Below, piece after piece: positions 8,632-64,000 of a DNA stretch of 64,000 nucleotides. Position numbers and translations under genes: made by a program. Source of the stretch: Takakia lepidozioides (lineage: Eukaryota; Plantae; Bryophyta). The notes beneath the pieces are model-generated. The model searched no databases. It worked only from the letters and a program-made list of their open reading frames with translations, and was not told the DNA's origin. The stretch spans positions 1,426,001 through 1,490,000 of the forward strand of contig CM060733.1 of NCBI GenBank assembly GCA_030704615.1. Direction: 5' to 3'. Each line of letters begins with the position of its first letter. The stretch's first letter is position 1.

Positions 8632-8634
<3 letters not shown>

Positions 8635-8689
8635 AGCTGCAGAGCACCACTCTAATCTCGTGTGCGGGCACGCACACAGCAAGTGCAGG

Positions 8690-25663: not shown

Positions 25664-26161
25664 TGTAATGGCCAGATTCCTTCTACCTACCTTTTCGACA
25701 TTGGATGAACAGACGTTGGATGATGACCGTTGAAAAAGGGCTTGGATGAAACAACTAGAAACAATCTATTTTTAAACTAAGTATTGTCTTATGTTGACAG
25801 CTAGTTTATCTCTAAAATAGAATGAGGTGGCGTCCTATCTGGACAGACACCCGGATGGCATCCAAGTGACCAATCAGGGCTTATCACTTGGTTAGATAAG
25901 ATTGTGGGCCTTCGTTTATAAAGAAGATCAACACGACGCTTAAGGCGGCGGTGTACGTTTGGTGTGAAACCCTACTGTACTTGTGTGGGAGTTTTGGATG
26001 AAAAGGATGTGAGTAAGGATGTGTTGTTAAGCTGTGTGAGTGATTTCTGACTCCTCTCCGTTGGATCCTGCCTATCTCGCTAGCCTGCTTTACCAAGCAT
26101 ACATCCCCCTTATAGCTCAATACCCCTAGAGGAAGAGGAATAACGGGGTGGGCAAGAATCT
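25664..26161 (+). repeat. Element A 5' terminal repeat (A1)
   Basis: Near-identical to 61403-61900 (roughly a dozen differences by eye). Confidence 0.95.
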
Positions 26162-31083: not shown

Positions 31084-31099
31084 TTACCCCTTCCCCCTC

Positions 31100-35209: not shown

Positions 35210-35339
35210 TTCATTGTCTGCTGTGTGTCGCCCCTGACCTCCACGTGTCTATTTTTAAAGTAATTTCCGTTTCCTCTTCCGTCATCCATTTTCCTGAAGT
35301 TACTGTGTGGAGGTGACAGGTTGGGTCATACTGTGTTAC

Positions 35340-35700
35340 GCTGTGATAGTCTGTGATGCACTGTGGAGCTGTGATAGGCTGTGACAAGCTGTGGTAGGTT
35401 GTGATAGGCTGTGTTGCGCCTTGCGGGGCTGTGATAGGTTGTGTCACATCGTGAGGGGCTGTGATAGGCTGTGTCACTCGTGGGCTGTGATAGGCTGTGT
35501 TGCGCTGCTGGGCTGTGATAGGTTGTGTCACGTCGTGATGGGCTGTGATAGGCTGTGTTGCGCCTTGCTGTGGTGATAGGTGTGTTTTCACGTGTGATGG
35601 GCTGTGATAGGCTGTGTTGCGCCTTGATGGGCTGTGATAGGCTGTGTCACGTTGTTGGCCTGGTCATATGTTGCTGGGGGGTGATAGGCTGTTACTTTCT
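35340..35700. repeat. GGCTGTGATAGGCTGTGT minisatellite between pol and the accessory ORFs of element B
   Basis: Directly visible degenerate repeats. Confidence 0.85.
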
Positions 35701-41700: not shown

Positions 41701-41824
41701 TGAGGGGTCCAGATGATTCCCCTATGTCTATTCCTCTCTCCCAAAGATATGGATAATTAGCTTTCAGATAGCTTTCTCTTTTTGCTGAATATCTCTGTCG
41801 TCTAGCTTCTCTTTCATCACTCAT
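35692..41824 (-). CDS. Element B Gag-Pol polyprotein (several small frameshifts)
   Basis: Gag 41824-40259 with CCHC knuckles; protease LIDGGSGVN; RT VFLDDF; RNase H CDASG..TTEREALA; integrase HHCC, GLDFVGP, SDQG, GQAEATN; WKGPY at ~35940. Confidence 0.93.
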
Positions 41825-41845
41825 GTCCCATGTCTTTCATTTCTT

Positions 41846-42400
41846 TTAATGTGGCAATAACCAAAACTCTCTTCTGTAATATCTCTCGTATATGCCTGGG
41901 TTTCTTTCAAGCTTCAATGCACCCTTGGCTATACTTGAAGTCTCCGTTACCATATAACCATATGGCAAACAAGTCTGAAAAGCTGTTCTTGGTGTGAGTT
42001 TGATCCACAAAATATCCTTTGGAATCCAATTCTTTACCAGTACAAGCTCTTCATGCATATGAGTATAAACATTCACCTTTCTTTCTTCCCAGCCTTCAAA
42101 CTCTACTCGTTTAATGGATAGCAATGCTATCACATAAACCAATGTTGGTAACCAACGTGCTCTTCCTCTACAGGCTACCTGATAAATCTTTATCACTCCT
42201 TTCTCCAGACCCCATTCTGGATCAGCATCATGCACTCGTTTAAGAATATTTTCTTTACAACCGTCTGACAATTCCAAGAACCTTTGAAAGAATTGTTTGG
42301 ACAATCTTTCTTCCTTCGTTCCACAGGGAATTTGATTCACTTCAAATTCTTTAATGGTCCAACCACCATGATCCCACCAGATGCCTGTCACATCTGGTTG
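41846..42400 (-). CDS. Element B short ORF upstream of gag, unknown function
   Basis: Open frame of ~180 codons between the PBS and the gag start. Confidence 0.4.
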   Translation of the reverse strand, partial: QPDVTGIWWDHGGWTIKEFEVNQIPCGTKEERLSKQFFQRFLELSDGCKENILKRVHDADPEWGLEKGVIKIYQVACRGRARWLPTLVYVIALLSIKRVEFEGWEERKVNVYTHMHEELVLVKNWIPKDILWIKLTPRTAFQTCLPYGYMVTETSSIAKGALKLERNPGIYERYYRREFWLLPH

Positions 42401-42420
42401 TTCATGTCCCAGCTCCCCAG

Positions 42421-42431
42421 TATGGTCGCCA
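42421..42431 (-). promoter_or_regulatory. Element B primer-binding site (tRNA-Arg type)
   Basis: TGGCGACCATA, 2 nt downstream of the 5' LTR. Confidence 0.75.
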
Positions 42432-42433
42432 AA

Positions 42434-43490
42434 TGTCGCGCGGCTTTTACTCACCCATCCCTTCGCTATCCGAGGCGGAAACTCCAAGATAGAAGAGTTG
42501 GAAATCTCTAAGTACTCAGCCCGCGCAGAACAATCAGTCATGACCTACAGCTAGTGTATCATGGGGGTGTTTCCTATTTGTTTCCCTTTCCGCATTCATC
42601 TTAGCTACCTTACCATTGATAATTAAGTATCAGTTTGCTTCATCAATCTATCGGTTTCCTTCACTCATCCATTCAATCCACAGCTTCACTCAGATCTCTC
42701 TACACAGTGTGATTGTATCGTGTAAGTATCAGATTATGATTTATCAGGTATCAGGCCGAAGCCATTATGTCTCTAATCTGCTCTACAATATCACTACAGC
42801 TTTGCATATAACAAGCATCTACTAATCCTCTTTCCTCCTTCACCGTGCTCTCCATCTTTTGCTTCCGATCTCCGCTCCAGCCTGACTAAGAAGTCCTCCT
42901 CCGAATAATGATCCTCATCTCCCCGTTTCTCCCTTTATCTTCCTCTCCGCGGTTCTAACCGTTTCCCTCGCTAACCGTTGTCTGTGAACTAACATGTTCC
43001 CTTCGCAGGTGTTGTTCCCCACAGTCGTTCCCTGTCCTACTCTTCGTTCCCTATGATGTGACCGCTGTGTCAAGCTGTGACTGGCTGTGTGAAACTGTGA
43101 CGGGCTGTGACTGGCTGTGCGACTGTGTTTGGCTGTGTCGGGCTGTGACTGGCTGTGTGGCTGTGTGGCTGTATCGGCTGTGTCTGCTGTGACGACTGTG
43201 ACGGGCTGTGTTGGCTGTGTCGGCTGTGACGACTGTGACGGGCTGTGTTGGCTGTGTAAGCTGTGACGACTGTGACGGGCTGTGTTGGTTGTGTCGGCTG
43301 TGACGACTGTGACGGGCTGTGTTGGCTGTGTCTGCTGTGACGACTGTGACGGGCTGTGACGACTGTGTAACCCCCCTCTACAGTGCGCTGCTGTCACCCC
43401 TAAGGCTCCTGTTGGTCTCAGTCTGTGCAAAAATTAAGGGTACCCTACAGATCCCGTATAAGTGTCTAAGTCCCCTACAGTCCTCTAACA
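42434..43490 (-). repeat. Element B 5' LTR
   Basis: Direct repeat of 30105-31083, followed by TSD GACGG at 43491-43495. Confidence 0.95.
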
Positions 43491-44049
43491 GACGGTGACG
43501 ACAAAGACTTGGACAATGACTTTTCATGTGAGTAAGTTCATTTTTTGTCTATTTGATCCCTATGTATATGCTCTGTCGCGTCCCCTTCTGTTGTCTGATT
43601 GTTACCCAAATGGTGCATTTCTGATTGCAGGAATGTGAACGCACTCCCGTGGCCCCTGTCTTCCATATACTTGAGGGACTTGTGCTGGAGCCCACCTCCA
43701 ATATTTGGTTGGATGGATGGAGGATGAATGTTTTGGATGGATGAACCCCGATTGGATGTACACTGTGGATGAATGTTGCATGCATGGATGGTCCCATGGA
43801 TGATGTCAGTGCGCAGTATCATGCACAGGGGCGGGATGGCGAGGTTCACTGTCGGGGTTGAGGTGGGTCCTAAGGCTAACAAGGGTTAGGGTTTCTGTTT
43901 GGGGTTGCAGGGTTAATATGGATGAAGACGTGTTTCTGCGGTAATGGATCCTCTTCCACGGAAATAGACGCCGCATCTTTCCCAAAACCATGCCACGTGT
44001 CATGGGCTCACGCCAGGCTCCTGGGCTCACAGGCTCCTGGGCTCACGTG

Positions 44050-47000
44050 GCTAGGCTCACACTCTAGCATCCCCCATACCAGTCCGACCCAAGGGGTCCC
44101 TCCAGCCTCTGGTAATGTGCCTAACCTAAATATTCAGGGCATTTGTGATGCTATGGCTACGCTGTCTAGTTGTCCAACTCTTATGCAACTCTTTTTGGAT
44201 AAACAAGTAGGTTCGCCTTCAGTTACCAAGCTCAAGGAGGTTCATCGTGCTCACAAACGTTTTTATCCTGACTATGAGGTAGGCCAAGACTTTGACAACT
44301 TCCTCAATTTTTTTGAGATGAGTGTCAAATTCAATGAGCTGCCAGCTTCTATGATTACTGATTCCTTTCGTTTTTGCCTCAAAGGTGAGGCTCGTGACCT
44401 CTTTGAAGCTAGTATCAAGGATCAGGGTGAGTTGCGATGGGGAGTGGCCAAGCAGTTGGCGCAGTTGAGGCTAACCCAAGAAAAGCACGGACACAATTTT
44501 TGTCACGTGGTGTAGGAAAGTCCCAGACAGCCTGAATTTTGGCAGGGTCAGGGCTAATGCCTTGGGCTGAGAGAAGGTGGCCAAGAAAATGAAGCTCCGT
44601 CATGCACAGGTCACATTTCTTAGCTTTCACTTTGAGACCTGCTCTTCTAAGCCTGCACAAAATGCGCTTCAGATCCAGCATGTGAGAATCAAAGTCAGCG
44701 AGTAAACGTTGATATCATCAACATATACCAATGCATATTCCCAGCGCAAGTTCCCTTGAACAACATCCATGAGACGTTGAAAGGTGGCAGTGACATTACA
44801 TAATCCAAAAGACATGGTTTCAAACTGAAAGAGGCCCATCTTACAGGTGAACGCAGTTTTCTCCTTGGCTGACTCTGTGAGTGGAACCTGCCAAAAACCC
44901 GCAGCAAGATCCAAGGAAGAGAAGAGAGTGGCACCATTAAGTTGATCCAAACGAGGTAATCTTTTTTTGTTAGGGCATTGAGACGTCGGAAGTCAACACA
45001 GAAACGGGTGGTACCATCCCTTTTGGCAACCAACACGATGGGGCTGGCCCAGGGGGAAATAGAGGGTTTAATAACTCTTGCATCAAGCATCTTGGTCAGT
45101 TTGATTTGCATAATTTCGCGCTCCTTGACACTCTCTCTATAAGCATACTGTTTGACAGGGCTACCTTCAGTGATAATGTCATGATGAAGAACCTCGATAC
45201 GTCCCAAATCATGAGAACCAGGACTGAAAACATCAAGATTGTCACAAATAATATGATATAAACGAGACTTCTCATTGTCAGTGAGACCAGAGCCAATTTT
45301 GATATCAGTCAGGACTTGATCAAGATGAGCAGATTGTGCATGAGTGAGGGGACTGACCGGGGGTGCATCGACAGATTGTGCTAGGAGATGCAATTTGATC
45401 TACAGGATCATCAGACAGACCAATGTCAGCAAAACTTAAAGCATGTTGCACCTCTCATAAATCTGTCAATGGGGTGGCAGTGAGTCGAGCAAGGACCTAA
45501 CCCTTGCGGATGGTGATAGGTATGTGTTCTTGGTTGGCAACAAGAAGTCTGAGCTCCCCTCGAAAGCCCCGATCCAGCACCCCAGATGCAATCAAACAAT
45601 GTTTAGAAAGCATCAAACGTTTCCACCCTTCGACTTCAAGATAATGACCTTGTGGACAAAGAAATGTGAGGCCAAGAGAAACTATCTTTTGGGAGGAGGC
45701 AGGGATAACGAAGTCAGCGGGAGTGCGAAGAAGAGTCGTGTTACCTGGGATTGGAATGGGAGGGCCACTCTTCTTACCAGGCAAAGGTGGCTACCATTGA
45801 TACAGGGTGAAGGGAGCCGTCTTGGCAAAGTTAAAGTAGCGTGTCCAGTTGTATTGCTCACCCACCTGCCGCTTTGTTTCAGCAACAAGGGTTTGCATGT
45901 GGGAGAGATGTGCAGTGGCACAACCAGCAGGCAAGGAGACAGAGTTGAGCTGCACCTTGTGGGGGGAGGAGCTGCCACTGGCAAGCCACATGACGTTTTC
46001 AACCACATCAATTTTTGCACCTGCAGCACACATCCAATCCAAGCCTAACAACAACTGTTCACCAATGGTGACGATACAAGTCAGTGTGACCGACTTGCAA
46101 CTGACCTTAATGGGGACGGTGACCAAACCTAGGGGTTCATAACGTGTGCCATCTGCAATGGTCACCTGCAGACCCTTGGCTGGAGTGAGCTTGAGACCAA
46201 GTAGTCGAACCACGGACAATGGAACAGCAGACATGGTACAGCCTGTGTCAACAACACATGAAAATGAGAGGTGCCCTATGTGACATTGAGTCATGAGAGG
46301 GTGCACTCTCTCCTTCCTAAGCTTTCTATTGGCTTCACAATGCATCAACTTGATTTCATTGGACAACATTACAAAAACAATGGAGTCATCCTTCGCATGG
46401 TGTGTGGGAGACTGACCTGCTTGGCCCCTTCACAAGCGATCGGGTTTGTTTAAAGGCTGTTTGCCCCTCTGTAAACGTTGAATACGTTTGTGTTCTTCAA
46501 TCATACCAGGGACAAGAGCGGCATAAGTGAAGAATCGGGTCCAGTGCTCAAGTGACCCACAAATGAAACAGACCACACGTTTACCTTGAACCTCATACCG
46601 TGGGCCAGTCTAAGTGTGGCCACGATGAGAGTCAGCAGGAGGAGGCTTGGCAGGTGCAGCCCTCCAGGATCCTTCTGCCCTCACAGCCTGAAGCTGAGTA
46701 TGCAGCTCTTGTTGTAGGTTTTTAACTTCCTCCAGCAATGTGGGAGAGGCCTCTGTAGAGCCACCCTTAACCATGGCAACCCCATGAGAACAGTCGGAAG
46801 CATGCTGATGAGCAGAATGAACAACAGGCTGACAACCTTTGCCTAGTTTAACATTCTTAAACCGCATGCACTCATCCATCATCTCTACCATATGCCTCTC
46901 ATTGCGATAAAGATGCTTTTGTAGGTAGACTTGATCAGAGGCAGGCAATCTGGTAATGAAGTAGGTTTTAAGGATGGCAGTGCGTTCAGAAGGTACCGGA

Positions 47001-49167
47001 ATGGCCTTGACCACCGTGGTTTTCAAGTCAGTGCAGACATGCCCATCAATTACACCATGCATGATCGTCCTTATCAACCTGGTGAGAGTATCTGGAAATA
47101 CTATTATTATCGTCGTTTCATTAAACACTTTGCTCACATTGCCGTTGCGCTTAATCAATTGTTATGCAAAGATGTTCGTTTTCTTTGGGGCAAGTCCCAA
47201 ATCACTGCTTTTGAGAAACTCAAAATTGCCCTCACCAGTGCACCCATTCTAGTCTTTCCTGATTTTTCCCTACCCTTTATTCTTCAAACTGATGCCTCTG
47301 ACCTGGCTGTTTCAGCTATCATATGCCAAAAGAGACATGGCAGGGAACATGTGGTGGCCTATGCTTCCAGGCGGCTTGATAAACATGAAAAGAACTATAG
47401 TATCACTGATAAAGAGGGCCTTGCAGTCATTTTTGGGGTTAAACATTTTCGGCAGTATCTCCATGGTTGCCCCTTTGTTATTCAGACTGATCATCTTCCA
47501 TTGAAGGCTCTCAAAACCCCACGAGCACTCTCGGGACGCTTGGCTCGGTGGTCACTTACTCTTCAAATGTTTGAATACGACATTGAGTATAAGAAGGACA
47601 AAGCCAACAGCAATGCTGACGCTCTCACACGCACAGAGACTAAGTCCTCTGACCTTTATGTTACTTTAGATGACCTTGCCCACTGCTTACCATCTACTGC
47701 TTCACCCTTGCCTTCTTCCTCTTCTGACCAGTCCGATTTACTTGCCTTGTTTGCCATTGTTCCTCTTCTTCCACCTGATCTCATGTCTGAATGGGATTTG
47801 CTCTCCTTTTCTGCTGGTTGAAGTTGGTTTAGAGTGTTGTACTGTCACTGTGGTCATATTCTAGGTATGATATCACTCTCTCTTCTGTGATTGAACTGTC
47901 ATTTTCTTCTTCTAGTTCTGGTTTTGGCACTGAATCCTCTCCATAGGGAAATTTGCTTCTGTGCTTCATTGTCCTTGGTTGCATCTTCATGAAGTCACCC
48001 TTGTCACTCAGTTGAGCTGACAGCCTTTCCCTGGAGATCACTGAGGCGGACACTCCGATAGGCTCACACTAACCCAAGGGCTGGCTATGGCAGCTGCAAC
48101 CATGGAGGACCAACTTCACCAAGCCCTCCTCCAGAAGTGTAAGACCAACACTCATCTGTCGGGCCTATCTTCCCGTCTCCTTAGGCAAGTCAACTATCAT
48201 CTCCCCTCTCATCGGGAGCATGAAGGTAAATTGCTTAAGGTAGTTCATGTTCATGGGCAAGAGACTGCCGTGGAGGTCCCTACTAGGATGCTTGCGTTGC
48301 TTGAGCTTTATCATTGCTCACTATATGTTGGTCATCTAGGCGTTGACAAAACTGTCAAGCGACTCCAAGAAAAGTACCATTGGAAGGGGTTAACTAAGGA
48401 TGTGGCAGATTTCATTTTTAAGTGTGTTACATGTAAGTCTAAAACACTGCTGCCTAGGACCATAGCTCTTCTTAAATTACAACCAATTCCGGTGACTGAG
48501 ATGTTTGCCCGAGTTGGTCTTGATCTTGTTGGACCCCTCAGAACTACGACTAAGGGCAATAGCTACATATTCTTCTTTGATGAAATCCTGCTACGCCATG
48601 GTTGTCATCTTGAAATTTTAACTGATCAGGGTACGGAGTTTTGTAATCAACTTATGGAGGTTGTGTGCTTTAATTTAGATGTCAAGCATCGCTTGACTGC
48701 TCCCTGCAACCCCCAGTGCAACGGGCTTACAAAGAGGTTTAACAAAACCATGTGCCAGTTGTTAGAAAAGAATGGGGCTCTCACTGAAGACTGGGATGTT
48801 ACTCTACCCATTCTCATATTTGCCTACAGGACCTCAGTGCATGCCATCACTCGCTTTTCCCCTTTTGAATTATTGTATGGCCACAAGGCTCGCACCCCTC
48901 TTCATGTCCCTGTGCTTCAAACTCAGGTTGAGGAGCCCATCATATGGGAAAACTTTCTTACTCACCTCACTTCTCATCGTTTACGTTTATTAGAGACTGT
49001 TAAGCACAACATTCAGGTTTCTCAAGTTGCTCACGCTAGAAATTATAACCGTAGGGTTGTTTACTCTGAAATTTTTTCTCTAGGCCAGACTGTTTGTGTT
49101 CGATTGCAGCTTGGCAAACAGGTTACCAAATCCAAGATGCGGATCGATGGGCCTTATCTGATTCATG
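44050..49167 (+). pseudogene. Element A gag-PR-dUTPase-RT-RNaseH-integrase remnant with internal inversion (~44467-47100)
   Basis: Gag start on +. Protease VVDTG, dUTPase and RT YVDD on -. RNase H (QTDASD..DKEGLA) and integrase (GHLG..CVTC, GLDLVGP, TDQG, GPY) on +. Confidence 0.88.
45497..45784 (-). CDS. dUTPase-like domain between protease and RT of element A (inside the inverted block)
   Basis: DFVIPASSQKIVSLGL..GHYLEVEG..IASGVLDRGFRGELRLLVAN..ITIRKG resembles trimeric dUTPase motif III (GVID.DYRGE). Confidence 0.75.
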   Translation of the reverse strand: MPGKKSGPPIPIPGNTTLLRTPADFVIPASSQKIVSLGLTFLCPQGHYLEVEGWKRLMLSKHCLIASGVLDRGFRGELRLLVANQEHIPITIRKG

Positions 49168-49872
49168 TGTCATGCGCATACATATCGCTACACAACTACA
49201 TCGCTGTCCAAAACCACACAACACGTGCACACCACACACTAGTATACCACTAGTCCACCACTAGTCCAGCCACTAGTCCAACCACTAGGCTACAACTAGT
49301 CAGTCACTAGGCTGCCACTATGCTGCCCACTATGGCAGTCACTAGTCCACACAATGATAAAGAAGAAGAATACAAGCACAAGCTCATGCGAGCTCACAAA
49401 GCTGAAGCATAAACTCAGGCATATATAACCTCATCACTCAAATACAAGTCAAGCCAAGTGCACCCCACGCCATGGGGAATCCACACTACGGCGCCATAGC
49501 TAGGCGCGGTGAGGCTCAACTCGAGAAAGATGAGCCTTCCGCGCTTGCCGTGAAGATAACCACTCCAGGGCCTAAATCTTCCTTGACCCCTGGATTGACA
49601 CTTGGGCCAATCCCAAATGTCAATATGTAAAAGCTAGCTATTTCCTAGCTAGTTTCACACTAGTGGTAAAATAACTTGACAGCTGTCGTGCGCATACATA
49701 TCGCTACACAACTACATCGTTGTCCAAAACCACACAACACATGTGCACACCACACACTAGTATACCACTAGTCCACCACTAGTCCAGCCACTAGTCCAAC
49801 CACTAGGCTACAACTAGTCAGTCACTAGGCTGCCACTATGCTGCCCACTATGGCAGTCACTAGTCCACACAA
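49168..49872 (-). repeat. Element D 3' repeat block B1-GC-A2-B2
   Basis: 49168-49354 matches 49684-49872; 49355-49681 matches 60609-60935. Confidence 0.95.
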
Positions 49873-50131
49873 TCGCCCCCCTAGCTGGTGCTTAGGTCCC
49901 TCTAAGTCCAGGTAGCCACAAGATGTGATAGTGACCATAGCCTCACTAAGTCCTCCACCACTATCCCTACTACACTCAAACTCGATAGATCAAGAGGCCG
50001 GGTGCAAGAGTTGCCCCATCGTTAGTCGCCGTCTTGCAACCTGTGAACTTGAGCTTGGGATCTCATGTATTGACTCCTATGAGCTTGGCCTCCCATGTCT
50101 TGTTAGCTGCCTCCAGTCATGTCCACTGCCA

Positions 50132-50274
50132 CTATCCCAAGCAGTGTGGACACAACCAATCTCCGTCAGGAACCTTCTCAAGAGGTGGTGTCAAGCATCC
50201 CATATGCCAACCCCTTGAGCATCGATCACACACCAGCATGGTGGCTGCCCTTTGGCAGACCCACAGAGCATGCA
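50132..50274 (-). CDS. PHD finger at the integrase C-terminus of element D
   Basis: With one base restored in the G-run at ~50248-50250: CMLCGSAKGAATMLVCDRCSRGWHMGCLTPPLEKVPDGDWLCPHCLG* (C4HC3). Confidence 0.9.
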
Positions 50275-53200
50275 CCTCAAACCTGCAGGTACCACTGCCA
50301 AGTTTGGGTCAACTCTGCCATCGACATTGGGAAGGTGACATGGCGCACAATTACGCACATGGTCCTTCCAAGTCATGCCATCCCGACCCTCCAAGATCAG
50401 GACCCCTGAGGGCAACACCTCTCGAACCCTCAGAATAACACGCCCTGCAGTAACATCCAGAGTCGTAGGAGCAGTCTGCTGCAAATAAACATAGTCACCA
50501 GGGCTAAACCTCCGAACCCCAGGACGATATCCTCCACCACGTATAGTGGCATACCTCAACGTATCACGGTGCTGTGCAATGGCAAGGTTCTCAAAAGCCA
50601 TGGGCATGACTTTCTTGAACAACTCTGCACGCTGATCACATGCACGTACCCACACGTCCGGATCGTCAAGGTTAAGGACTTGAGCAGTGTCCCTACGAAT
50701 GGCTGCAGGCAAATCCGGCTCTCGGCCAAAGAGAAGGAAATATGGTGAGAAGGAGGCAAGTGATGCTTGTTTGCTGAACCTGTAGCCCATGGCTAACCAA
50801 GGAACCTGAAGATCCCAATCTCCTAGGTGTCCCTTCTGCAAGCCATACTTGCGCAAACCCCTCTTCACCGTCTGAACAACTCTCTCTGCTAAGCCATCGG
50901 CCTCAGGATGATCCCGAGAAGTGGTGCGGTGGTCTATCAAGGCTTTATCACACAAAGCCTGAAACTCCCCCAAAAACTCTCTCCCTTGGTCCGTGAGTAC
51001 CTCAGCTGGAGCACCAAATCGGCTAAGCACACGATCCAAGAATGCATACGCAGCCCCCTCACTAGCCTTGTCAGGCAATGGAACCAACTCAATCCACTTG
51101 GAGAAGTGCTCCACCATCACCAACACATATCTGTGGTGGCGCATAGTCAGTGGCAACGGTCCTGCGAAGTCAAGACTCCACCTGTAGCCCAATCCCATGA
51201 TTGGTAAAGGATGCAACTGTGGTGTAGGGGCGTTGAATGAAGCACGCACCCTGTCACACACCATGCACCTAGCCACGAACTGTTGCACCTCTGTATGCAT
51301 ACCACGCCACCAATACTGCCCCTGCAGTAAACTGTGAGTGCGTCGCACTCCAAAATGCCCCAACTCCTCATGGGCATGCCGCACTAACCGTGCACGCTGT
51401 GTGGGGTGAGGCACAATCCTCACCCGACCATCCTCCCACACTCGAAGTAGGTGTATCCCCTCCCACTTGAACCTCTTGGCTCGTTGCAGGATCCGATCCC
51501 TCTCCCTGGCAGTCACAATGGCTGCCGTGTCTCCCGTGCGGAGGTAGTCCAACACAGCCGAATCCTCATGTATATCTCTGGCACCACCTAGCTCATCACT
51601 AGCCTCAGGGTCCTCAGACACTCCGTCTACAGTCATCCCTGTTGTAGGTCCAATCTGACCTCCCGATGCCAAGATACACAAAAATGCAGATGCGTGCCAT
51701 CCCGGCACCATCTCCTCGTCCGTCTCACCATGCCACCGAGCTCCAGTGTCATCCTGCTGGCTCATGCATGGATTGCGACTCAATCCATCCGCATCCCGAT
51801 TGACCAAACCCGGTCGATGCACAACCTGAAAGTCATACTCCTGGAGTATAAGTGCCCACCGTGCAAGCTTCCCCGTAAGCTTGTCTGACTCCATCAACCA
51901 CTTGAGTGGCTGGTGATCCGTGACAAGGGTGAAAAGATTGCCGTATAGATAGCACCTGAAGTGTGCCACGGCCCACACTGCAGCTAAGCACTCTCCCTCA
52001 TATGAGCTGTACTTAGCCTCTGCAGCGTTGTTCGAGCGGCTAGCGTAAGCCACTACGAACTCTCTTCCCTCATCATCCACCTGTGTGAGCACCGCTCCAA
52101 GCCCCAGCATGCTCCAATCCGTATGCAGCTGAAAGGGACGCCCCCTGATAGGTCGTCTCAAGATAGGCGCCGAGGTCAACCTCGCCTTGAGCTCTTGAAA
52201 AGCTCGTTCCTGCTCATCTTCCCACTGCCACTCCTGGTCCACCTTGGTCAGCTTGGTTAGAGCCTTTGCAATGGTACTAAATCCCTTGACAAACCGTCTA
52301 TAATAGTTTGCCAACCCCATGAAAGCTCGAACTCGGCTCACATCCGTGGGGCGTGGAATTTGTGCAATGGCCTCTACCTTAGTCTGCTGTACCCCCAATC
52401 CTCCAGGATATATCATGTGACCCAGATACTCAATCTGGTTGTGGAAAAACTTGCACTTCCCCGGATGCAACTTCAATCCGTGCGCTCTCAAGCGCTCCAA
52501 TACCACCTGAAGGTGTCTCTCATGCTCCTCCATCGTAACACTAAAGATGATGATGTCATCTATGTAGCACCGAGCAAAGTCCACCCCTGCTAGAATCCTA
52601 TCCATGACTCTCTGAAACTCTGCAGGAGCATTCTTAAGCCCAAATGGTAAGAACCGCCACTGATATAGGCAATCCTTGCCGTGCTCATTGATCCCCCAGA
52701 ATGTCGTCTTCTGCTTGTCCGCCTCCTTGATTGGCAACTGGTGATATCCGGATCGTAAATCCAAAGTGCTAAAGCCTTAGCATGCCCGATGGCATCAAAG
52801 ATCTCCTCTGGTGTTGGCATGGCATACTTATCGGACTTGGTCTGACGATTTACAGGCCGGTAATCACCGCACATACGTCTCTCCGTCCAATTGCCATAGA
52901 CATCCTTCTTGGCTGGCATCACTGTGGCTGAAGCATACTCTCCACCAGAGAGCTCCACCAAACCTGCCTCCCAGAGATCTTGAGTCCTCATCTGAATCAA
53001 AGACCTCTCCATGTCACTGTATCTATAGGGTCTCCGAAAGATTGGCGTGTCAGTGGCCAACTCAATACGGATCTCTTGACCCTTCAGTGCTCCCAAGTCC
53101 TTCAAACTGAAGGCAAAGCAATTCCTGTAAGCCCTCAGGAACCGCCGTATACGTCGTCTCTCTCCTCCGGTGACAATGGGTCCAATGTCAGGCTCCCAAT

Positions 53201-56200
53201 TGTCCTCCGTAACTGCAACCTTAAGTCCAGTGGGCTTAGAGGTAGAGGACGCGTCCAGTGGTTGCTATGTTGCAACCTCTTGAGCAGTACTCCCTGCCTG
53301 CTCAGTCAATGACAAGGCCTCATCCTGCCCCATCATCTCATCCTTGAGGACCTCCTCAACCCGAGAAGAATCCCCAACCTCATCCATCACAGCCGCCTTG
53401 GCTGCCAACTCCCTCTGAACCTCGAGCACCTCCCACGTGTGCCATGGATGCATGCACCCCGTGGTCCTCACATGCTCGCCCCCACTCACTGCCTGTACCG
53501 TCTCGGTAGGCAGAGAGACCATTGAGGGAAGTGTACTCCGCACTCTGCGTTGCTCAGCCAGAGCCAAGCTGATAATCCAGGTCAAGCAATTGAGATCCAT
53601 TGCTTGCCCCAACACTTGACGACGTGATGCCTCAGAAAGAGACGACACCGCCGTGGTACCAGTGGTAAAACCCATTGCCCGCTCACGCTCGTCAGCATTA
53701 GGCTCCACTAACTGCTGCAACTGAGCATCCCACAGGAGGCCAGGTCCACTATCCCGGAAAGCATGCGATCCTGGGAAGCTGAGCAGTGTAGGTAATGCTG
53801 CTCGTGGTTGACCCACCTTGTTGACCACTGCCAAAGGCGAACGGTCATCGTGTCTCACACGTTGAGACTGCCTCCCTGTGTCCAGAATGTATCCACTGTG
53901 AGATGTGCTGGCCGCTGCACCCCATCAAATGCACGCTTGAGCAGTGCGGGTGGCATCAAGTTAGTCCACCATAGCCGTGGACGATGAGCCCGTGACCCCA
54001 CTGTAGCTGCATCTAGCAACACTGCTGACCCAAGCCACGACCGGACTTGATGCACACTGGCCATCACCCTGGCCCGAGAATCGCCCATACATTCTCCAAG
54101 ATGTATGCTGGAGATACAGCTTGATGAAGCTGCAAGTGGCGCAAAACCCGCACCATCTCCCAAAACAGACCCGACCTCGAGTCTCGCAATCCATTGCCAT
54201 GCCCGGCTGATGAATGCCCTTGGCAGGGCCAACCTGCCACTACCAGATCAATGGAGCCAACCCGCTCCAAATCCTGCGCCCCCAGCAACGAAATGTCTGC
54301 TGGCAAGGCCTGCTGATATCCACGAATTGCAGACACCGACAACAACTCAGGGTACCGCTGCACCAACTGAGCAACATGGCGAAGTGAAACGCGTCGTGCA
54401 GTCTCATCCCTCTCCACATACAGGTAACGCCGAACTCGTACACCTGCCTGTAACACAGCAGCCAATCCGGTGCTGATCCCGCCAAACAAGTCCAGAAGAC
54501 AAATGCCTTCATCCGGATACTGCCACACAATAGGTGTGGTGTCCAATGGAGACAATTGAGGTGGTCCTGGTGCAATCCCCACACTCTCCTCTCTCCTGAC
54601 GGTACAAAAGCCTCCACCCAGGCTTGTTGCACCCGTCGATCAGCATCCCGCTGCAAATCCTTGCTCGTGCCCCACAATGGAGTCTGAGCAACCATGGTAG
54701 GCAACTCCGCCATACCATACATGTCATCCTGCTCTCCCGGAGGTGGTACATCCTCTGAATGAGCATTGCCCTCAAGCAACTCTCTAGGCCAACTCACTGC
54801 CGCTGTGAATGCTGCTAGTGTCGGCATCTTGCCTCGCTGGGCAACCGCAACTCCTCCTATGAACGTCACAGGGAGCTGCACACGCCGGCCCTCCCCTGAC
54901 TGCCATGCAGGCCTATAGGAAGCTGACTCCTCCCAAAAATCCAGGGTGAAGCCCATGGGGTACAACACTGCCCCACCAACCAGGACATCGTATGAGACTG
55001 CGTCTGTCACAATGGCCTTGGCTCGCATCACTGAGCCATCTGTAGGGTGATCCGGCCGTAGTCTGATAGCCAACTCACATTGTGTCATGCCCCGAGCCTG
55101 CTCCGATCCTCCCAGAGACGTCTGTATCTGGAAAGGACAAGGCTCCATATCCGCCTCCGTGAGGCCCAAGCCTGCAATAGCAGCTCTGCCCAGCATCAAT
55201 GGCTGAGCTCCCGAGTCCAACAAGACCCGCAGTGGCCGGTACCTCTTGCCTGCCGGTCCACTCAAACAGAAAATGCCATCCTGGTTGTCTAACATGACAA
55301 CTCCAGGTGTCACCATGGCGCGCTCAATGGCTGGCCTAGCTGGCAGCTCCATCAACCTGGCAGCTGCAGCTTGCCATGGCGCCGCCGTGGCAGTCTTGAC
55401 CCTCAAATCCGAGGATCCCTCCGGCACTACACCTCCCACTATCTCCGCAGAAGATGAAGTAACCTCCCCACTCTCACAGAGTGTAGCTGCCAGCCTGAAC
55501 ACCTCAGCTGGTTTACCCCCGGCGTCGCAATCATGGTAGCCGAGAACAATGGAGCCTGGCACACAGATGTGGCCGCTCCTAGCAGCACACTAGCTGCCGT
55601 AGCCTTGGCAACACTAGGTAGTGGTGCTACCCGTGTAGCTCTCCCCAATGGCATAGTAACCTCCGCCTCGGTAACAGTCGGGCGAGAACTAGGTGCCATG
55701 GATGGCGTCGACACTGTCTCCGCCAATGTGAATGACTGAGGAAGCCTAGCCTGACGGCTTGCCTCCCCACGCTGTGGATCCAACTCCACCTCTGCACCTC
55801 GTGGCTCAGGAACTCGTGCTGCTCCTCGAGTCACGGCTGCAGCAGACTCCACCTGCACTAGTGGTAGTGCTGCTCCACACATGAATCCCATGCCTCCCAT
55901 ATCTCCTCCCTCAGGAGCAGGAGGTGGACCATCCGGCCTTAGAGCCGGTACCACCTGAGCTGTAGCCATGGCAGCGAGCCTCTGCTCTAGCTGCTGAAGC
56001 CGGTTGGCCATGCCTTGGTCAACACCCTGACCTCCGCGTCCTTGGCCACGTTGAGCTTGCCCTTGGCCTCGTGGCTGGCCACCTCGTCCTCTCTGGGCTG
56101 CTCCACCTCGCCCCGGCCACCATTGTTCCCTTGGAACTGGCCTGGGCGCAACTCAGGATGCAAACCATAACACTGGGCCTCTCCATGCCCGTGCTTGCCA

Positions 56201-57428
56201 CAATGCCCACACTGCAACTGTGCAGGCTGTGCATGTGCCGACCCTTTGCCTCCCTCTGGGCAATCCTTCTTGACATGGGGTCCTCCACATGTCCAGCACA
56301 CCACATCCGCCCGTTGTTGGCCAGCAAATGAAGGGAGAGACCCCTGCATCTGAGGTCCTCTCTGCCCTTCCCTGAGCTTCACCTGAGCCCCCTTGTTGCC
56401 TTGAGCACGTTGAGGTAGTGGTTGGCTAGGAGCACCACTACCCCGTGGTGTCTCCTTAGCAAATCCCACCATGACCACTCGTTCCTCCACCATGTTGAGC
56501 TCTATCCGCTCTGCCAGCAAAAACACATTTGCTAAGGTGGGTTGGGCCGCTTGTAGGAGAGTTGCATCCCGCACCCTTCTCCTCAGCTCCTTGTCCAATA
56601 TCCCATACCAGAATTGGACTGCCTGAGCTTCCGTAACCCCTTGGGTTACATTTATCAAGCGCCTCATGCGAGTGAAAGCCTCCCTCAAGCTCTCGGTCGG
56701 CTTCCGTTGGAACTCTTGCAAGCTCCGCAACTTCTCTGTCCTCACCCCTTGGTAGTTCCCTCTCAACTCTTCGAAGAACTCCACAACAGGGTTGAAGGCA
56801 GGCACGGGTGCTAGTGCTGGTGGTAGTGGCTTGGGTGGACGTCGTAGCTACTGTACCACCAGTCCCACTAGTTCCACTGCTACTTGCTGAAGCTGCCGGT
56901 GCAGCGGCAGGTGTAGCCACTGCCCTCGTGGCTCTAGTGCCCCTAGTGATGGAGACATAGTCGGGTGACCAGTACATCCTCCACTCCTCGATCTCAACCT
57001 CATGCCCCCGCCTGAACTCATGGTAATCATCCATAGGCGGCCCCTCAAGGTGCTGAAACAGCCCTTTCCATGCCATGAAACGGCGTAAATAGTTGTGGAT
57101 TGCGCATTTGCTGCAAATCACACCAACTATCAAACTCTTGGATAAAATCATCCAACTCGATGGTGCCCACCGCCCCAGAGTACCTTCGTGGCCCCTTGGT
57201 AGCTCCATACATCTCCTCCATTGTGTCCCACAACAATGGCAAAGAAACAACTTGCACCGCCGGTATGAGTCCTCCTGATTCACAATCCGAATCAGAACCT
57301 TCCGTGGAAGACACAGGAGGTGAAGGTGGCCTAAACCGCACACCTCGTCTCGTGTACCCACTAGTATCGCTAGTGCTCGAACCGGCACTGTCCCCAGCAA
57401 CTAGTGGCACCTCCGTGTTGACACTCAA
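50132..57428 (-). CDS. Element D polyprotein: Gag-CCHC-protease-DNMT-RT-RNaseH-integrase-PHD (frameshifted as assembled)
   Basis: Gag DDFIQEFDSW; knuckles CWTCGGPH and CGHCGKHGH; protease LLDSGA; RT CYIDD; RNase H HTDWS..YEGECLA; integrase GHFG..CMVC, SLDFAGP, TDQG, GLAER. Confidence 0.93.
53560..54510 (-). CDS. DNMT3-like cytosine-5 DNA methyltransferase domain within pol of element D
   Basis: Motifs I DLFGG, II YVERD, III ADI, IV GWPCQGHS, V GLRDSRSGLF, VI ILENV, VIII AHRPRLWWTN, IX ERERAMGF and X RRQVLGQAM, spread over three frames. Confidence 0.93.
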
Positions 57429-58099
57429 CCGGTCATGAACATGTCCCTAACCCCTCTCCACAAGGTAACCGGGTAGAGAACCTGTTGCGGCTTATGGTTT
57501 GGAATACTAAGTTCCTAACATAGCCTACACCTGTACCTGCATCCACCGCAAGCACTCCTATGGTTGGCTGGTCATCACCTCCAACCTCACCACAGGAAAA
57601 CAATGATGGTCTGGCTGGTCATCACCCCAGCCTCACCATCGACAGCATGCTCTAGGACTGGCCGGTGATCAAATCCGGACCAATCACCTATAAAAACAAG
57701 CGCCCACACAAAACTAGCATGGCGCACAGTCAAGCATGCAGGTATGGAGGGGATCCAAACACAAGAAATCAGAACGACAACTCCCCCACACCAAAAACAA
57801 CTCCACGGTGTTGCTCCTGCAAGGACACCCCAGCCCAAACCCGGACTGACTCTTGCCTCCACCTACGGAAAGGTCTTGGCCTAATGAGAGGGTGGAAACT
57901 ACGAGGAAGAGAAGCTAAAGCAATGCCTAACCCCAGCATGCCCTCATCCCAACACTCTTCCTCTCCTCTCTTCCCTCACTTGCATGACCATGGGAATATC
58001 ATGAAGATACTCCTCAAACCGCCCTCCACGAGCTTCAAAATTCGGCCTTCCAGACCACATGCCAGTCCTTAGGCAGTCCACCAGTGCCTCCACGAGTCA

Positions 58100-59125
58100 G
58101 CACAGGCCCACACAGCTCACTGGTCACAGCCGTCACAGTCCCACAGGCCACTGGCACAGCCTGTCACAGCCCCTCATAGCCCGTCACAGCTCGCCACAGC
58201 CTGTCATAGCTCGTCACAGCCCCCACACAAGCCTGTCACAGCCCCGCCCAGCCCATCACAGCCCCACAGGCCACTGGGCACAGCCCGTCACAGCAGCAAG
58301 CTCGCCACAGCTCGCCACAGCCCCTCACAGCCCCAAAGGCCTCAGGTACGGCCTGACACAGCCCTTCACAGCCCGTCACAGCCCCAAAGGCCTCAGGCAC
58401 AGCTTGTCACAGCCCCTCACAGCCCTCACAGCCCCAAAGGCCACGGGCACAGCCTGTCACAGCCCTCACAGCCCGTCACAGCCCCACAGGCCACTGGGCA
58501 CAGCCTATCACAGCCCCGCACAGCCCGTCACAGCCCCCACAGGCCACTGGGCACAGCCTGTCACAGCCCCTCACAGCCCCAAAGGCCACGGGCACAGCCT
58601 GTCACAGCCCCTCACAGCCCGTCACAGCCCCACAGGCCTCAGGCACGGCCTGACACAGCCCCTCACAGCCCGTCACAGCCCCAAAGGCCTCAGGCACGGC
58701 CTGTCACAGCCCCTCACAGCCTGTCACAGCCCAAGGCCTCAGGCACGGCCTGTCACAGCCCCTCACAGCCCATCACAGCCCCCAAGGCCACCGGCATAGC
58801 CCGTCACAGGCCCTCACAGCCCATCACGACCCCGAAGGCCACCGGCACAAGCCCTCACAGCCTGTCACAGCCCCGAAGGCCACCGCGTAGCCCGGCACAG
58901 CCCTCACAGCCCTGAAGGCCACCGGTGCAGCCCGGCACAGCCCCTCACAGCCCCAAGGCCTCAGGCACGGCCTGTCACAGCCCGTCACAGCCCAAAGGCC
59001 TCAGGCACGGCTTGTCACAGCCCGTCACAGCCCCAAAGGCCACGGGCACAGCCTGTCACAGCCCCTCACAGCCCGTCACAGCCCACAGGCCACTGGGCAC
59101 AGCCTGTCACAGCCCCGCACAACCC
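58100..59125. repeat. ~1-kb CACAGCC/CTGTCACAG minisatellite in the 5' leader of element D
   Basis: Directly visible degenerate array. Confidence 0.92.
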
Positions 59126-59589
59126 TCAAGCCCCATCCATGGCCGCTCTGGCAGTTTAGCCATTTCTCCAAGGGGTTTAGCCACGCCAAGCTAGGGTTTG
59201 TGTCTCTTGGACTCTAGGCTTCTTTCCACCGAGCTATGGCGGCTGTGAGGAAATCAGCAAGGTTTCTTGCTCTTTCGGCTCCCACACACCACCATAGTAG
59301 CCCTAAGCCATGAGGTGGTTGCCACAAACCAAGCCTTCTTTCTCACTTAGCCTCCCCAAACACGCCACTAAACTCAATGGCAAACAACCAAGCCCTGCTG
59401 GTTCCCAGCCCTTGTGAGCACTCATTCAAGCACTCTCCTTGGCCATAGCATCTGTCTTAGAGCCTATTCCAGCCCCCTACACCTGCTGCTTCAAGAGTTG
59501 CGCTCCCTTCAAGCTTGAAGTTGAAACCCCAACTCACATAGGCCCTACAAGTGCTTTTCTTTCACTCCAAGTGGAAACCAGCCCTAGAC

Positions 59590-60000
59590 CTTCCGTTCTA
59601 GCTCTCTAAAGCTTGAAAACAAGAGCCTCAATGGGCTGAAGGCATGCTCCACACATGCCCCACTCTCACCATAAGAGAATCAGCTCCTTTGCTTCATTTC
59701 TTGCACCCACAAACCTGAAAATACAAGCTTCAGCAGGCTGAAAGCATGCTCACATGCCCTACAGGGAAACCAGCCCCTTCCTTCCTTTCTTGCACTCCCA
59801 CACCTGAAAGTGCAAGCCTTCACCAGGCTGATAGCATGCTCCACACATGCATTGCCCTCACATAAGGGAAGTCAGCCCTTCCCTCTTCCTTGCTTGCCCT
59901 CCAAGCTTGAAGATGGAAGCTTCAATGAGCTGAATACATGCTCCACACATGCAACCTCTTCACACAAGAGATATCAGCCCCCTATCTTGGCTCCTTGATG
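59590..60000. repeat. Degenerate ~100-bp repeats in the leader of element D
   Basis: GCTGAA.GCATGCTCCACACATGC..CAGCCC recurs about 4 times. Confidence 0.6.
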
Positions 60001-60608
60001 CTCTCTAAGACAAGACTAAGCACTCCACATCCTTTGCCAAGCTCCTGAAACCCTAAGGCTTACATTTCCAGCCACAAGACACTTCTCTTGTGGTGCAAGA
60101 GCTCTTCTTCCAAGCTCTGAAACCTAGGTGCACTTCCACCTCTTAGCTCCTGTTCCAGCCCTGCTCTTGCCATGCCAAAAGCCCACCATACTCCACAAAG
60201 TGCACTGATTTGCCCCAAGCCAAATCAGCCCTTTCGCTTGGTCTTGCAATCCTTCACACAATGAAAGCTCGCATTCCCAAGTCCAGTTCTCAGCTTTGCC
60301 ACCAAAGCCACTATAACCTGCTCTTGACTGGTCTTCTTCCCAATCGTGCTTGCTTATGCATGTACACAATCTGAAACCATCAAGGTGCTCTGGAATTACC
60401 TGCAACATGGTGCTTTCATCTCTGAAGCTGAAGATCGCATGCCAAGGTTTACCACCTCGTAACCCACATCGCCTCCGCTTCTAACAACCAAGAGCTCCAC
60501 GGTGCTCCTTGCATAACAACCTGGTTTCTCTCATTCTCAAGCAAAAACCACAAGTGCTACAACTAACTCGTATTTGGCACTCACAGATACGAGCTCATCT
60601 TTCTCGAG

Positions 60609-60935
60609 TGATAAAGAAGAAGAATACAAGCACAAGCTCATGCGAGCTCACAAAGCTGAAGCATAAACTCAGGCATATATAACCTCATCACTCAAATACA
60701 AGTCAAGCCAAGTGCAACCCACGCCATGGGGAATCCACACTACGGCGCCATAGCTAGGCGCGGTGAGGCTCAACTCGAGAAAGATGAGCCTTCCGCGCTT
60801 GCCGTGAAGATAACCACTCCAGGGCCTAAATCTGCCTTGACCCCTGGATTGACACTTGGGCCAATCCCAAATGTCAATATGTAAAAGCTAGCTATTTCCT
60901 AGCTAGTTTCACACTAGTGGTAAAATAACTTGACA
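60609..60935 (-). repeat. Element D 5' terminal repeat (A1)
   Basis: 327 bp; about 2 substitutions versus 49355-49681. Confidence 0.95.
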
Positions 60936-61391
60936 CATGCGATTCTGCTTGGTCGGCAGTAATGTCTTCTTCCTCAGCATCCTCCTACGGCGGAGATTGC
61001 AGGGACTGTTCATGTTTCTCAACTGGTCCCTTCCAAGCTGCAGTTTGATTTGACCTGCATCAACGTGGAGAATCGGCATGTGGTTTTAACTCCGAAGAAG
61101 CGTGCTCGGCTTGATTCTGATTCAGTTGCTACCTAGACTTCCTCATGACACTGTCTTTATTCAGTTGCTCCCTACATAGGATCTCTCTCAGTTTTCTTTC
61201 TAGTTCTTTAGGTTGCACACCTCACAAGATAGGGTTTTTCCACAACAAGGTTTTGTCCTTCGCTCAAATTGCAGAGCAAGGTTTTCCTTGTTGCGGTTTT
61301 TCCATCCTATCTTGGTGTGATCCTGCTCCCTGTCTTGAGCATAATGTTTATTTAGCTAGCTCACCGGAGCTCGCTTCTCTGTGTGCCAGGA

Positions 61392-61909
61392 GGCTTTACA
61401 TATGTAATGGCCAGATTCCTTCTACCTACCTTTTCGACATTGGATGAACAGACGTTGGATGATGACCGTTGAAAAAGAGCTTGGATGAAACAGCTGGAAA
61501 CAATCTATTTTTAAACTAAGTATTGTCTTATGTTAACAGCTAGTTTATCTCTAAAATAGAATGAGGTGGCGTCCTATCTGGACAGACACCCGGATGGCAT
61601 CCAAGTGACCAATCAGGGCTTACCACTTGGTTAGATAAGATTGTGGGCCTTCATTTTATAAAGGAGATCAACACGACGCTTAAGGCGGCGGTGTACGTTT
61701 GGTGTGAAACCCTACTGTACTTGTGTGGGAGTTTTGGATGAAAAGGATGTGAGTGAGGATGTGCTGTTAAGGTGTGTGAGTGATTCTGACTCCTCTCCGT
61801 TGGATCCTGCCTATCTCGGTAGCCTGCTTTACCGAGCATACATCCCCCTTATAGCTCAATACCCCTAGAGGAAGAGGAATAACGGGGTGGGCAAGAATCT
61901 GGCTTTACA
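61392..61909 (+). repeat. Element A 3' repeat block B1(9 bp)-TA-A2(498 bp)-B2(9 bp)
   Basis: GGCTTTACA at 61392-61400 and 61901-61909 flanks the 498-bp repeat. Confidence 0.9.
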
Positions 61910-63222: not shown

Positions 63223-63666
63223 TTATGACACAAACCGGGCTAGTTGCTTCTGGTTCAACTTGGCTGCTTCTTCAGTACGCTTCTTGGCGGCTTTGATCTC
63301 AGTGCTAACACAATCAAACATGAAGAGAAATTCGCGCATAGTTTTGAACAAGTCAGTTTGTTTCTCTTCCTTCATTGTTTCGCCGAAGTAGGCAGCCAAA
63401 TCCTTCAGTTTTCCCAATGACGTGTTTGCAAGGGTTTGCAAATCTACCATCTCCTTTTTGGTCTTTTCTGCAAATGGACACAGGAGGTCTTGGAAACACT
63501 CCTTGTATTTCACATCCATGCTGGTTGGAAAGGTGCTGGTTTCTTGGATTTCTCTAACGAGTAAATCCACACCTCGTTCCAGCTCTTTGAGACTGGAATG
63601 AATTCTCTCTAGGCTCAAGTTAGCTGCAGACTTGACTTCTTTCATTTCCAATGCCAATTTTCCAAC
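63223..63666 (-). CDS. Formin, last coding exon (C-terminal FH2 region); gene continues beyond the window
   Basis: EVKSAANLSL..LKELERG..FAEK..LAAYFGE..DLFKTMREFLFMF; acceptor TTGCAG upstream of 63666. Confidence 0.8.
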   Translation of the reverse strand, partial: VGKLALEMKEVKSAANLSLERIHSSLKELERGVDLLVREIQETSTFPTSMDVKYKECFQDLLCPFAEKTKKEMVDLQTLANTSLGKLKDLAAYFGETMKEEKQTDLFKTMREFLFMFDCVSTEIKAAKKRTEEAAKLNQKQLARFVS

Positions 63667-64000
63667 CTGCAACAATATTGGATCTCTGGGTTTACATCAA
63701 AATGGCTCAGAGAAGAAAGCAGTTAGAGAGAGGGTTGGAGGGAACCAGCGCAAGAAATAATACCTGGACACCGATAGGAGAAGAGGAAGAAGAAACTACT
63801 ACCTCCACATGAGGCCCAAGGGCACAAGGACCCACAGAAATTAGGACTACAACAGAAAACCAAACAACTGTCCAAGAAGCCAACATTGCAGGAGAATGTA
63901 CTCATAAGACATTTGCCATAGCCTTGTGGCCAGAGACCCTGCTCCCAATTTGGGCAGAACTTGAGGGAAATATTGCAGGAGAGAGAGTGAGAGGGCCAGA

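Follow-up and report, generated by a model that had tools for sequence, protein, structure and literature searches.

A Takakia Gypsy retrotransposon with a DNMT3-like methyltransferase domain, split repeats and a putative internal integrase attachment site

KnitGypsy-Dnmt3 of Klebsormidium nitens is a Gypsy retrotransposon with a DNMT3 domain in Pol, DIRS-like repeats and a Ka/Ks below 0.2, and methylation of its complementary DNA (cDNA) was proposed (de Mendoza et al., 2018; PMC5890265, cited here for its main text and figure legends). The same text describes SymbioDIRS-Dnmt3 of dinoflagellates, likewise a retroelement-borne DNMT3 for which methylation of its own cDNA was proposed, and reports that it methylated CG de novo in yeast. 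Here we describe an element encoded in a 64,000-nucleotide stretch of Takakia lepidozioides (Bryophyta; assembly GCA_030704615.1, contig CM060733.1, positions 1,426,001 to 1,490,000 of the forward strand), referred to below as the window. It is a Ty3/Gypsy element (Table 1) in the order A1, primer binding site (PBS), leader, gag, protease (PR), DNMT, stop codon, reverse transcriptase (RT), RNase H (RH), integrase (IN), PHD finger, polypurine tract (PPT), B1, GC, A2, B2, where A and B are repeats. The element very probably belongs to the KnitGypsy-Dnmt3, or Gypsy-DNMT3, family, and its core idea, a DNMT3 in a Gypsy retrotransposon, was published in 2018. Taken whole, the explanation we favour, as somewhat better than an even guess, is that of a selected family that would make abundant Gag-PR-DNMT, methylate its own cDNA and integrate by cutting an internal palindrome of an end-joined circle.

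The likeness to KnitGypsy-Dnmt3 includes an intronless, unpermuted DNMT3 in a Gypsy polyprotein, a DIRS-like layout combined with Gypsy domains, and purifying selection; the layout, A1...B1-A2-B2 in the window, was compared with Figure 4c of PMC5890265 by its legend. The K. nitens protein P0230, unconfirmed as one of the published copies, has the same PR-DNMT-RT-RH-IN order as the window element, and the two are 50% identical over 797 amino acids of RT-RH-IN. An earlier note on this DNA, made from the letters alone, had held that the element looks like a distinct system, which the 2018 description and the shared order and identity show to be overstated. A PHD finger, self-priming, a leaky stop, target duplications and an internal attachment site go unmentioned in the text of PMC5890265, figures aside, and the words 'Marchantia', 'PHD' and 'target site' do not occur in its main text. 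KnitGypsy-Dnmt3 is described there as an acquisition of the K. nitens lineage, whereas the window family is present in high copy in a land plant and has relatives beyond K. nitens in Marchantia, Calypogeia, Sphagnum, Mesostigma and chlorophytes. Since passages in two further sources refer to the Gypsy-DNMT3 family as streptophyte (bioRxiv 10.64898/2026.05.21.726589; PMC12344493), land-plant members may already stand in published trees or supplements. In the open-licence literature, Repbase aside, we found no account of a readthrough stop, an internal attachment site, self-priming or the chlorophyte arrangement for Gypsy-DNMT3. Apparently new are the position in the first open reading frame (ORF1), the readthrough stop, the internal attachment site, self-priming, the RH-DNMT-IN clade and a wider host range.

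Ngaro, PAT and VIPER elements have split direct repeats of the form A1...B1-A2-B2 with a stored end junction, and a circular intermediate has been proposed for them. Unlike these, the window element has a Gypsy RT, a PBS, a PPT, a DDE integrase, TG...CA ends and 4-bp target duplications. A tyrosine-recombinase retrotransposon of the DIRS or Ngaro type was ruled out by the rve and H2C2 domains, the D,D(35)E core and the 4-bp duplications, and a Pfam scan of the element gave no match to a tyrosine recombinase. SymbioDIRS-Dnmt3 likewise differs in its tyrosine recombinase and is regarded as an independent capture (PMC5890265). EpiLTRs and DAM-LTRs are also long terminal repeat (LTR) elements carrying methyltransferases, but the EpiLTR DNMT is presented as sister to DNMT4 and is accompanied by DAM and a chromodomain, unlike the window element (bioRxiv 10.64898/2026.05.21.726589). 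PHD fingers are known in green-algal Gypsy elements (10.1101/2022.06.16.496473; 10.1101/2021.11.30.470311), among them Chlamydomonas Gypsy-7a, whose listed domains include no DNMT (bioRxiv 10.1101/2022.06.16.496473). Troyka elements, described as having CG...CG ends and 3-bp duplications and as confined to animals (PMC12440569), were set aside as unrelated to an element with TG...CA ends and 4-bp duplications.

All the methyltransferase motifs named in the earlier note were located on the minus strand, in unpermuted order and with the codons of the catalytic Cys, Glu and Arg intact. The first piece of the window domain matches Pfam PF00145 with an E value of 1.3e-12 and 48.2 bits (cut-off 22), a check which that note had proposed for the frame-corrected peptide. 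Class was tested by sequence and fold with an intact homolog, P0001, which is 78% identical to the window piece. Among solved structures its top match was human DNMT3A (E 6e-12, colinear), followed by DNMT3B and DNMT3C; DRM2 was matched only partially (E 1.6e-4), and HhaI and HaeIII at E 3.5e-4 or weaker. A Foldseek search with its predicted structure (pLDDT 76, pTM 0.82) returned, among the matches listed, only DNMT3A, B and C, including DNMT3A-3L and DNMT3A-3B3 complexes, at E of about 1e-16. Judged by the sequence and modelled fold of P0001, the window domain is closer to DNMT3 than to DRM, as the note had read from its motifs, or to DNMT1/2 or bacterial enzymes. The PDB matches, together with PMC5890265, point to an origin from a host DNMT3; the outgroups of our DNMT tree were bacterial and viral only, which counts against pressing this point. 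Of 203 full-length homologs, 199 retain the catalytic Cys, 202 the Glu of motif VI and 196 the second Arg of motif VIII. In 84 of them, Glu takes the place of the motif IV Pro that precedes the catalytic Cys, a replacement that is unusual among C5 methyltransferases.

Homolog searches returned 70 and 48 matches, with named homologs in Marchantia, Calypogeia, Sphagnum, Klebsormidium nitens, Mesostigma and Haematococcus, and in an exhaustive search 418 clusters passed E<=1e-30, the top 150 of them being inspected. From metagenomes we used the best 80 of 166 confirmed matches; with L082, an element from a prokaryote genome, this left 56 loci with room to test domain order. The order PR-DNMT-RT was found in 49 of them, and PR-DNMT proteins were found in Marchantia and Sphagnum. 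Between lineages, dN/dS of the DNMT is 0.08-0.19, similar to PR and gag, with RT and integrase slightly below (0.01-0.08), which indicates that purifying selection has acted on the DNMT in both streptophyte algae and seed-free land plants. Several observations pull the other way: seven of the 56 loci have a DNMT without an adjoining PR or RT, between-lineage dS is near saturation (pS 0.64-0.76) with pairs that are not independent, and within the main JGI group of loci dN/dS is 0.58 for the DNMT and 0.39-0.60 for other domains. This last level reflects the decay of copies after insertion. Proteins of the main JGI group are 55-70% identical to named Sphagnum proteins, not clearly above their identity to Marchantia. 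The earlier note had considered that the domain might be a one-off host fragment, absent from other copies and evolving neutrally. Two frame breaks in the window DNMT would suit such a capture, but the homologs and clusters counted above and the lack of these breaks in other copies of the same organism speak against it, and the fixed position, congruent trees and low dN/dS rule it out, leaving it next to no probability.

A second arrangement, RT-RH-DNMT-IN-PHD, was found in 42 of 253 proteins examined, including proteins of Scenedesmus (P0135) and Haematococcus (P0243). The named members of this RH-DNMT-IN clade (among P0075-P0253) are chlorophytes, outside the published streptophyte range. 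We compared a quick RT-RH tree of 39 rows (14 PR-DNMT-RT, 24 of 54 RH-DNMT-IN and one DNMT-less outgroup) with a quick DNMT tree of 51 rows. Both trees gave the same subclades and separated the two arrangements by a 99% branch, with K. nitens P0230 on the PR-DNMT-RT side in both, the RT tree having a single DNMT-less outgroup. Path lengths in the RT and DNMT trees are correlated (Mantel rho 0.69, with 0 of 999 permutations as high); rho is 0.98 within the PR-DNMT-RT group and 0.29 within the RH-DNMT-IN group. Viral contigs yielded one distant DNMT (L081, 34%) and no member of the RH-DNMT-IN clade, and prokaryote genomes yielded one true element (L082) and three distant bacterial DNMTs. L082, in a record labelled uncultured Synechococcales, and P0050, named Candidatus Obscuribacterales, are complete or partial family members filed under bacteria, and are likely eukaryotic contamination of bacterial bins. 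At L070:3660-4546 (minus strand) a second, divergent DNMT-like domain (35%), with remains of RT, RNase H and integrase downstream, adjoins the main element.

The earlier note had placed the methyltransferase inside Pol. It does lie between protease and RT, but it ends the Gag-PR ORF ahead of an in-frame TAG and is not part of the RT-bearing ORF. In 55 of 64 loci, the final stop in frame ahead of RT is TAR-CAR-YYN; of the others, three have a mutated next codon, three have this stop ahead of a later one and three are rearranged. The exact TAG CAR YYA is present in the window and in five loci from two other lineages (L036, L073, L075, L078 and L082), and many predicted homologs terminate just past the DNMT. 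CAR YYA after UAG is described as the readthrough signal of tobacco mosaic virus (TMV), functional in plants (PMC2754532). That the stop between ORF1 and RT is read through is, on this evidence, likely. Less favourable to it are most loci of the main JGI group, which have CAA CCC and differ from the TMV consensus by a single base, and P0231 and P0086, which have no stop between DNMT and RT, so the stop is not universal. Because the DNMT precedes a conserved stop in readthrough context, it is likely made at Gag rather than Pol levels, low-rate readthrough keeping RT and integrase rare. The enzyme would most likely be packaged with Gag and freed by the protease, and the note's proposal that it is packaged with Pol has to be amended, as the DNMT ends ORF1 ahead of the likely leaky stop.

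As to its function, the putative enzyme may methylate the element's cDNA, or a circle, before insertion, so that new copies would arrive pre-methylated; we lean, though only slightly, to an active role of this kind. A different role, to which we give clearly less credence, would be methylation of RNA, action on chromatin at the insertion site or in trans on other copies (a self-limitation that spares the host), or a structural function in the particle as a DNA-binding component. Expression at Gag level would suit a structural part, and the replacement of the motif IV Pro by Glu in many homologs also fits a role of this sort. In the text of PMC5890265, where such options are discussed, the K. 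nitens domain was negative in a yeast assay, a result that weighs against cDNA methylation but was judged inconclusive; DNMT3B failed as well. Against these other roles stand the near invariance of the catalytic Cys, Glu and Arg, the predicted fold of DNMT3, a DNA enzyme, and the de novo CG methylation by the related SymbioDIRS DNMT3 domains (PMC5890265). The observed/expected ratio of CpG in the window element is 0.53, a value by which methylation by host and by element are not separable.

A further point to be set against an active enzyme concerns the window copy itself, whose DNMT is split over three frames and which, as assembled, therefore cannot make the whole protein; its coding region has about nine frame changes. 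Contigs of four public runs (from at most three samples), when aligned to the element, show a diverse multi-copy family, in which other copies of the same organism are without the breaks of the window copy. In one public run, 143,258 pieces matched the element, in identity classes from below 90% to above 99%. Eight of 12 listed indel places fall in runs of at least three equal bases, against a background of 27%, and some of the frame breaks may be assembly errors or slippage; the two DNMT breaks lie outside such runs. A1 and A2 differ at two positions in 327 bp, and B1 and B2 by two substitutions and one 2-bp gap in 189 bp. The window element is a young copy, as the earlier note had held, and its PHD finger (frame-broken), split repeats and self-complementary primer site are all present as well.

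The repeats of the window element depart from canonical Ty3/Gypsy LTR structure, in that the B repeat next to the PPT is missing at the 5′ end and the element ends with B. B was likewise missing at the 5′ end at all 25 loci with an upstream A repeat (23 distinct insertions), none of which has B before A, and 21 of these 25 A repeats start with TGTCA. Perfect pairs of primer and PBS, of differing sequence, were found in the window (17 nt), the main JGI group (11-12 nt), L082 (13 nt) and L075 (16 nt). Because these pairs covary across four lineages, the RNA 5′ end would pair with the PBS behind A1, and self-priming by the RNA of this family appears very likely. Tf1/Tf2-type LTR elements also self-prime, their PBS pairing with part of the LTR instead of with a tRNA; unlike the window element, they have ordinary LTRs and no methyltransferase. 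Self-priming of LTR elements is also mentioned in PMC2864245. Given a PBS that follows A and a PPT that precedes B, reverse transcription of the ordinary LTR type would yield linear B-A...B-A DNA, in which the true LTR would be B+A.

The ends of such a linear molecule do not seem to be those used for integration. The palindrome GACA-GC-TGTC at the junction of B and A is exact in the window, L026, L033, L073 and L082, differs by one or two transitions in L045, L070, L072 and L075, and is conserved between lineages that share about 50% identity in their DNMTs. At the start of A and the end of B, exact 4-bp duplications were found in the window element and in seven of ten complete JGI elements; there were no 5-bp ones. 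Cutting of this internal palindrome by the integrase, with a 2-nt stagger and a 4-bp duplication, would produce A...B-A-B, and we think it probable that the integrase cuts at this internal attachment site within the LTR. Foamy virus integrase has been reported to cut the junction of 2-LTR circles (PMC1180852), and integration from circles is the subject of the Panganiban-Temin model (PMC11054761); an integrase cutting a palindromic CA-nn-TG junction is common to these accounts and to the route proposed for the window element. As presented in these papers, the foamy virus junction is made from cDNA ends and its role is disputed, whereas the window palindrome is encoded inside the LTR and all observed insertions end there.

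The A2/B2 joint corresponds to the predicted right end of the cDNA joined to its predicted left end. It is precise in the window, L033, L070 and L072, has a 19-nt insert in L045 (L045:10837-10857) and retains PBS sequence in L057 and L058 (L057:13282-13570, L058:5531-5819). The joints of L045 and L057/L058 resemble aberrant two-LTR circle junctions, as end-joined cDNA ends would give. Together with the B/A palindrome and the ends of A, they lend sequence support to the circular intermediate that the earlier note had suggested, and the linear cDNA ends would be joined to each other in place of being integrated. That the substrate is specifically a circle we consider only a little likelier than its opposite. 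A route without a circle, which is possible but rather doubtful, would have RT jump from the right to the left cDNA end, or two cDNAs join head to tail, and the integrase cut internal junctions of a linear molecule, the B1/A2 junction being the template to rebuild both ends. Such a template role has been proposed for the junction of split-repeat tyrosine-recombinase elements. Four of six A2/B2 joints are precise and share one base, the outcome expected of a programmed template jump, and the jump could supply the asymmetry described below; the two joints with inserted or primer-derived sequence are typical of end joining, and cutting at an internal site would still be required. That linear DNA is the accepted integrase substrate and precursor of retroviral integration (PMC11054761) favours this route and weighs against the circle.

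A short form, A...B with no repeat, was found at 16 loci representing 14 distinct insertions (e.g. L028, L032, L038, L042, L047 and L051), with exact 4-bp duplications in four of six complete elements, and a form with B then A at seven loci (six distinct insertions). The short form should be unable to replicate and fits one-LTR circles or a double cut, from which it may have arisen. Some points do not favour cutting of an end-joined circle: three of the ten complete JGI elements lack an exact duplication, the short form could also come from recombination between B1 and B2 or from assembly collapse, and the mirror form A-B-A...B, which a symmetric two-LTR circle predicts, was found at 0 of 25 upstream ends, which leaves the pattern asymmetric. 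Contigs L075 and L082, which are of unit length and look circular, were given no weight as evidence of real circles, since collapsed repeats would look no different.

This asymmetry bears on a further proposal, that the DNMT is an integration switch which methylates the CG/CHG palindrome of one LTR copy and so blocks the integrase cut there. It would account for the finding of the viable form A...B-A-B but never of A-B-A...B, the conserved junction has a CG and a symmetric CAG/CTG, and DNMT and split repeats occur together from Klebsormidium (legend of Figure 4, PMC5890265) to the window. The timing of strand synthesis could, however, yield the asymmetry without methylation, and the 14 distinct short-form insertions mean that the second junction was often lost or cut; we regard the switch as unlikely. 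Similarly improbable, in our estimate, is its extension to a green-plant-wide LTR lineage in which the attachment site moved to the middle of the LTR, integration from circles became obligate, and a co-packaged DNMT3 methylates one palindrome. If true, circles would be real integration precursors, steered by methylation that the element encodes.

The family turns KnitGypsy-Dnmt3 from a curiosity of one species into an old, selected lineage that includes Marchantia; in this model liverwort, with its methylation mutants, methylomes and transformation, the question why a transposon would carry its silencing enzyme can be put to the test. The arrangement of the repeats also provides a natural test case for a question pending since 1984-1988, namely whether the normal substrate of a DDE integrase can be an internal junction or the junction of a circle. 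As they have no matching full LTRs, and many copies are without any repeat, these elements defeat LTR finders; they also raise the apparent number of DNMT3 genes in annotations of bryophytes and algae and in a few prokaryotic bins.

Table 1. Coordinates of the retrotransposon and its parts (numbering of the window)
Feature	Position	Strand	Remarks
Target-site duplication CATG, 4 bp, 5′ side	60936-60939	.	
Ty3/Gypsy element, whole	49168-60935	minus	11,768 bp, TG...CA ends
Repeat A1, 327 bp	60609-60935	minus	starts TGTCA
Self-primer, 17 nt, inside A	60773-60789	minus	complementary to PBS; likely transcript 5′ end
PBS	60593-60609	minus	directly behind A1
Leader tandem array	58098-59135	minus	~10- and 51-bp units
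gag	56011-57221	minus	frame-broken; PF03732 weak, E 0.0024; two Cys/His knuckles 56260-56298, 56170-56211
Aspartic protease region	54900-55330	minus	LLDSGA 55206-55223; PF13650 weak, E 0.029
DNMT3-like C5 methyltransferase domain	53562-54516	minus	motifs I-X unpermuted; frame breaks ~54088, ~53889
Motif I LDLFGGISTG	54466-54495	minus	
Motif II LYVERD	54406-54423	minus	
Motif IV PCQG	54217-54228	minus	Cys codon 54223-54225 = TGC
Motif VI ILENV	54088-54102	minus	
Motif VIII AHRPRLWWTN	53960-53989	minus	
Motif IX ERERAMGF	53667-53690	minus	
Motif X RQVLGQAMD	53595-53621	minus	
In-frame TAG CAA CCA between ORF1 and RT	53259-53267	minus	TAG 53265-53267; UAG CAR YYA readthrough context
RT + RNase H	51830-53201	minus	YIDD 52555-52566; one frame break near 52775
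Integrase, zinc finger + D,D(35)E core	50700-51410	minus	core 51160-51177, 50983-51000, 50878-50892
C-terminal PHD finger	50141-50274	minus	frame break near 50250; 70% to end of Marchantia P0059 (PF00628)
PPT	49873-49885	minus	directly before B1
Repeat B1, 189 bp	49684-49872	minus	ends CACGACA
B1/A2 junction palindrome GACA-GC-TGTC	49677-49688	.	putative integrase attachment site; kept across lineages
Repeat A2	49355-49681	minus	
Repeat B2	49168-49354	minus	A2/B2 joint = predicted right cDNA end joined to predicted left end
Target-site duplication CATG, 4 bp, 3′ side	49164-49167	.	target = integrase end of older Gypsy element

The sequence next to the element, at 43880-49253 of the window, is older, decayed Gypsy sequence on both strands, and the integrase end of one of these harbours the DNMT element. 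A second LTR element at 30105-43490 has TG...CA LTRs of about 1 kb and gag-pol on the minus strand, and no DNMT was noticed in it; its LTRs and the 35.3-35.7 kb region contain tandem repeats 67-78% like the leader array of the DNMT element. A dispersed repeat of 499 bp is present at 25664-26161 and 61403-61900 (97% identical), and tandem arrays with units of about 105 bp and 121 bp lie at 243-616 and 27423-28185, respectively. Host genes are represented by a VAMP-like exon, recognized by eye (6008-6499), a SWIB/SNF12 gene (8504-10138), whose best named matches, in Diphasiastrum (68%) and Riccia (67%) against 59-64% in angiosperms, fit a seed-free land plant, and a formin FH2 exon (63223-63696).

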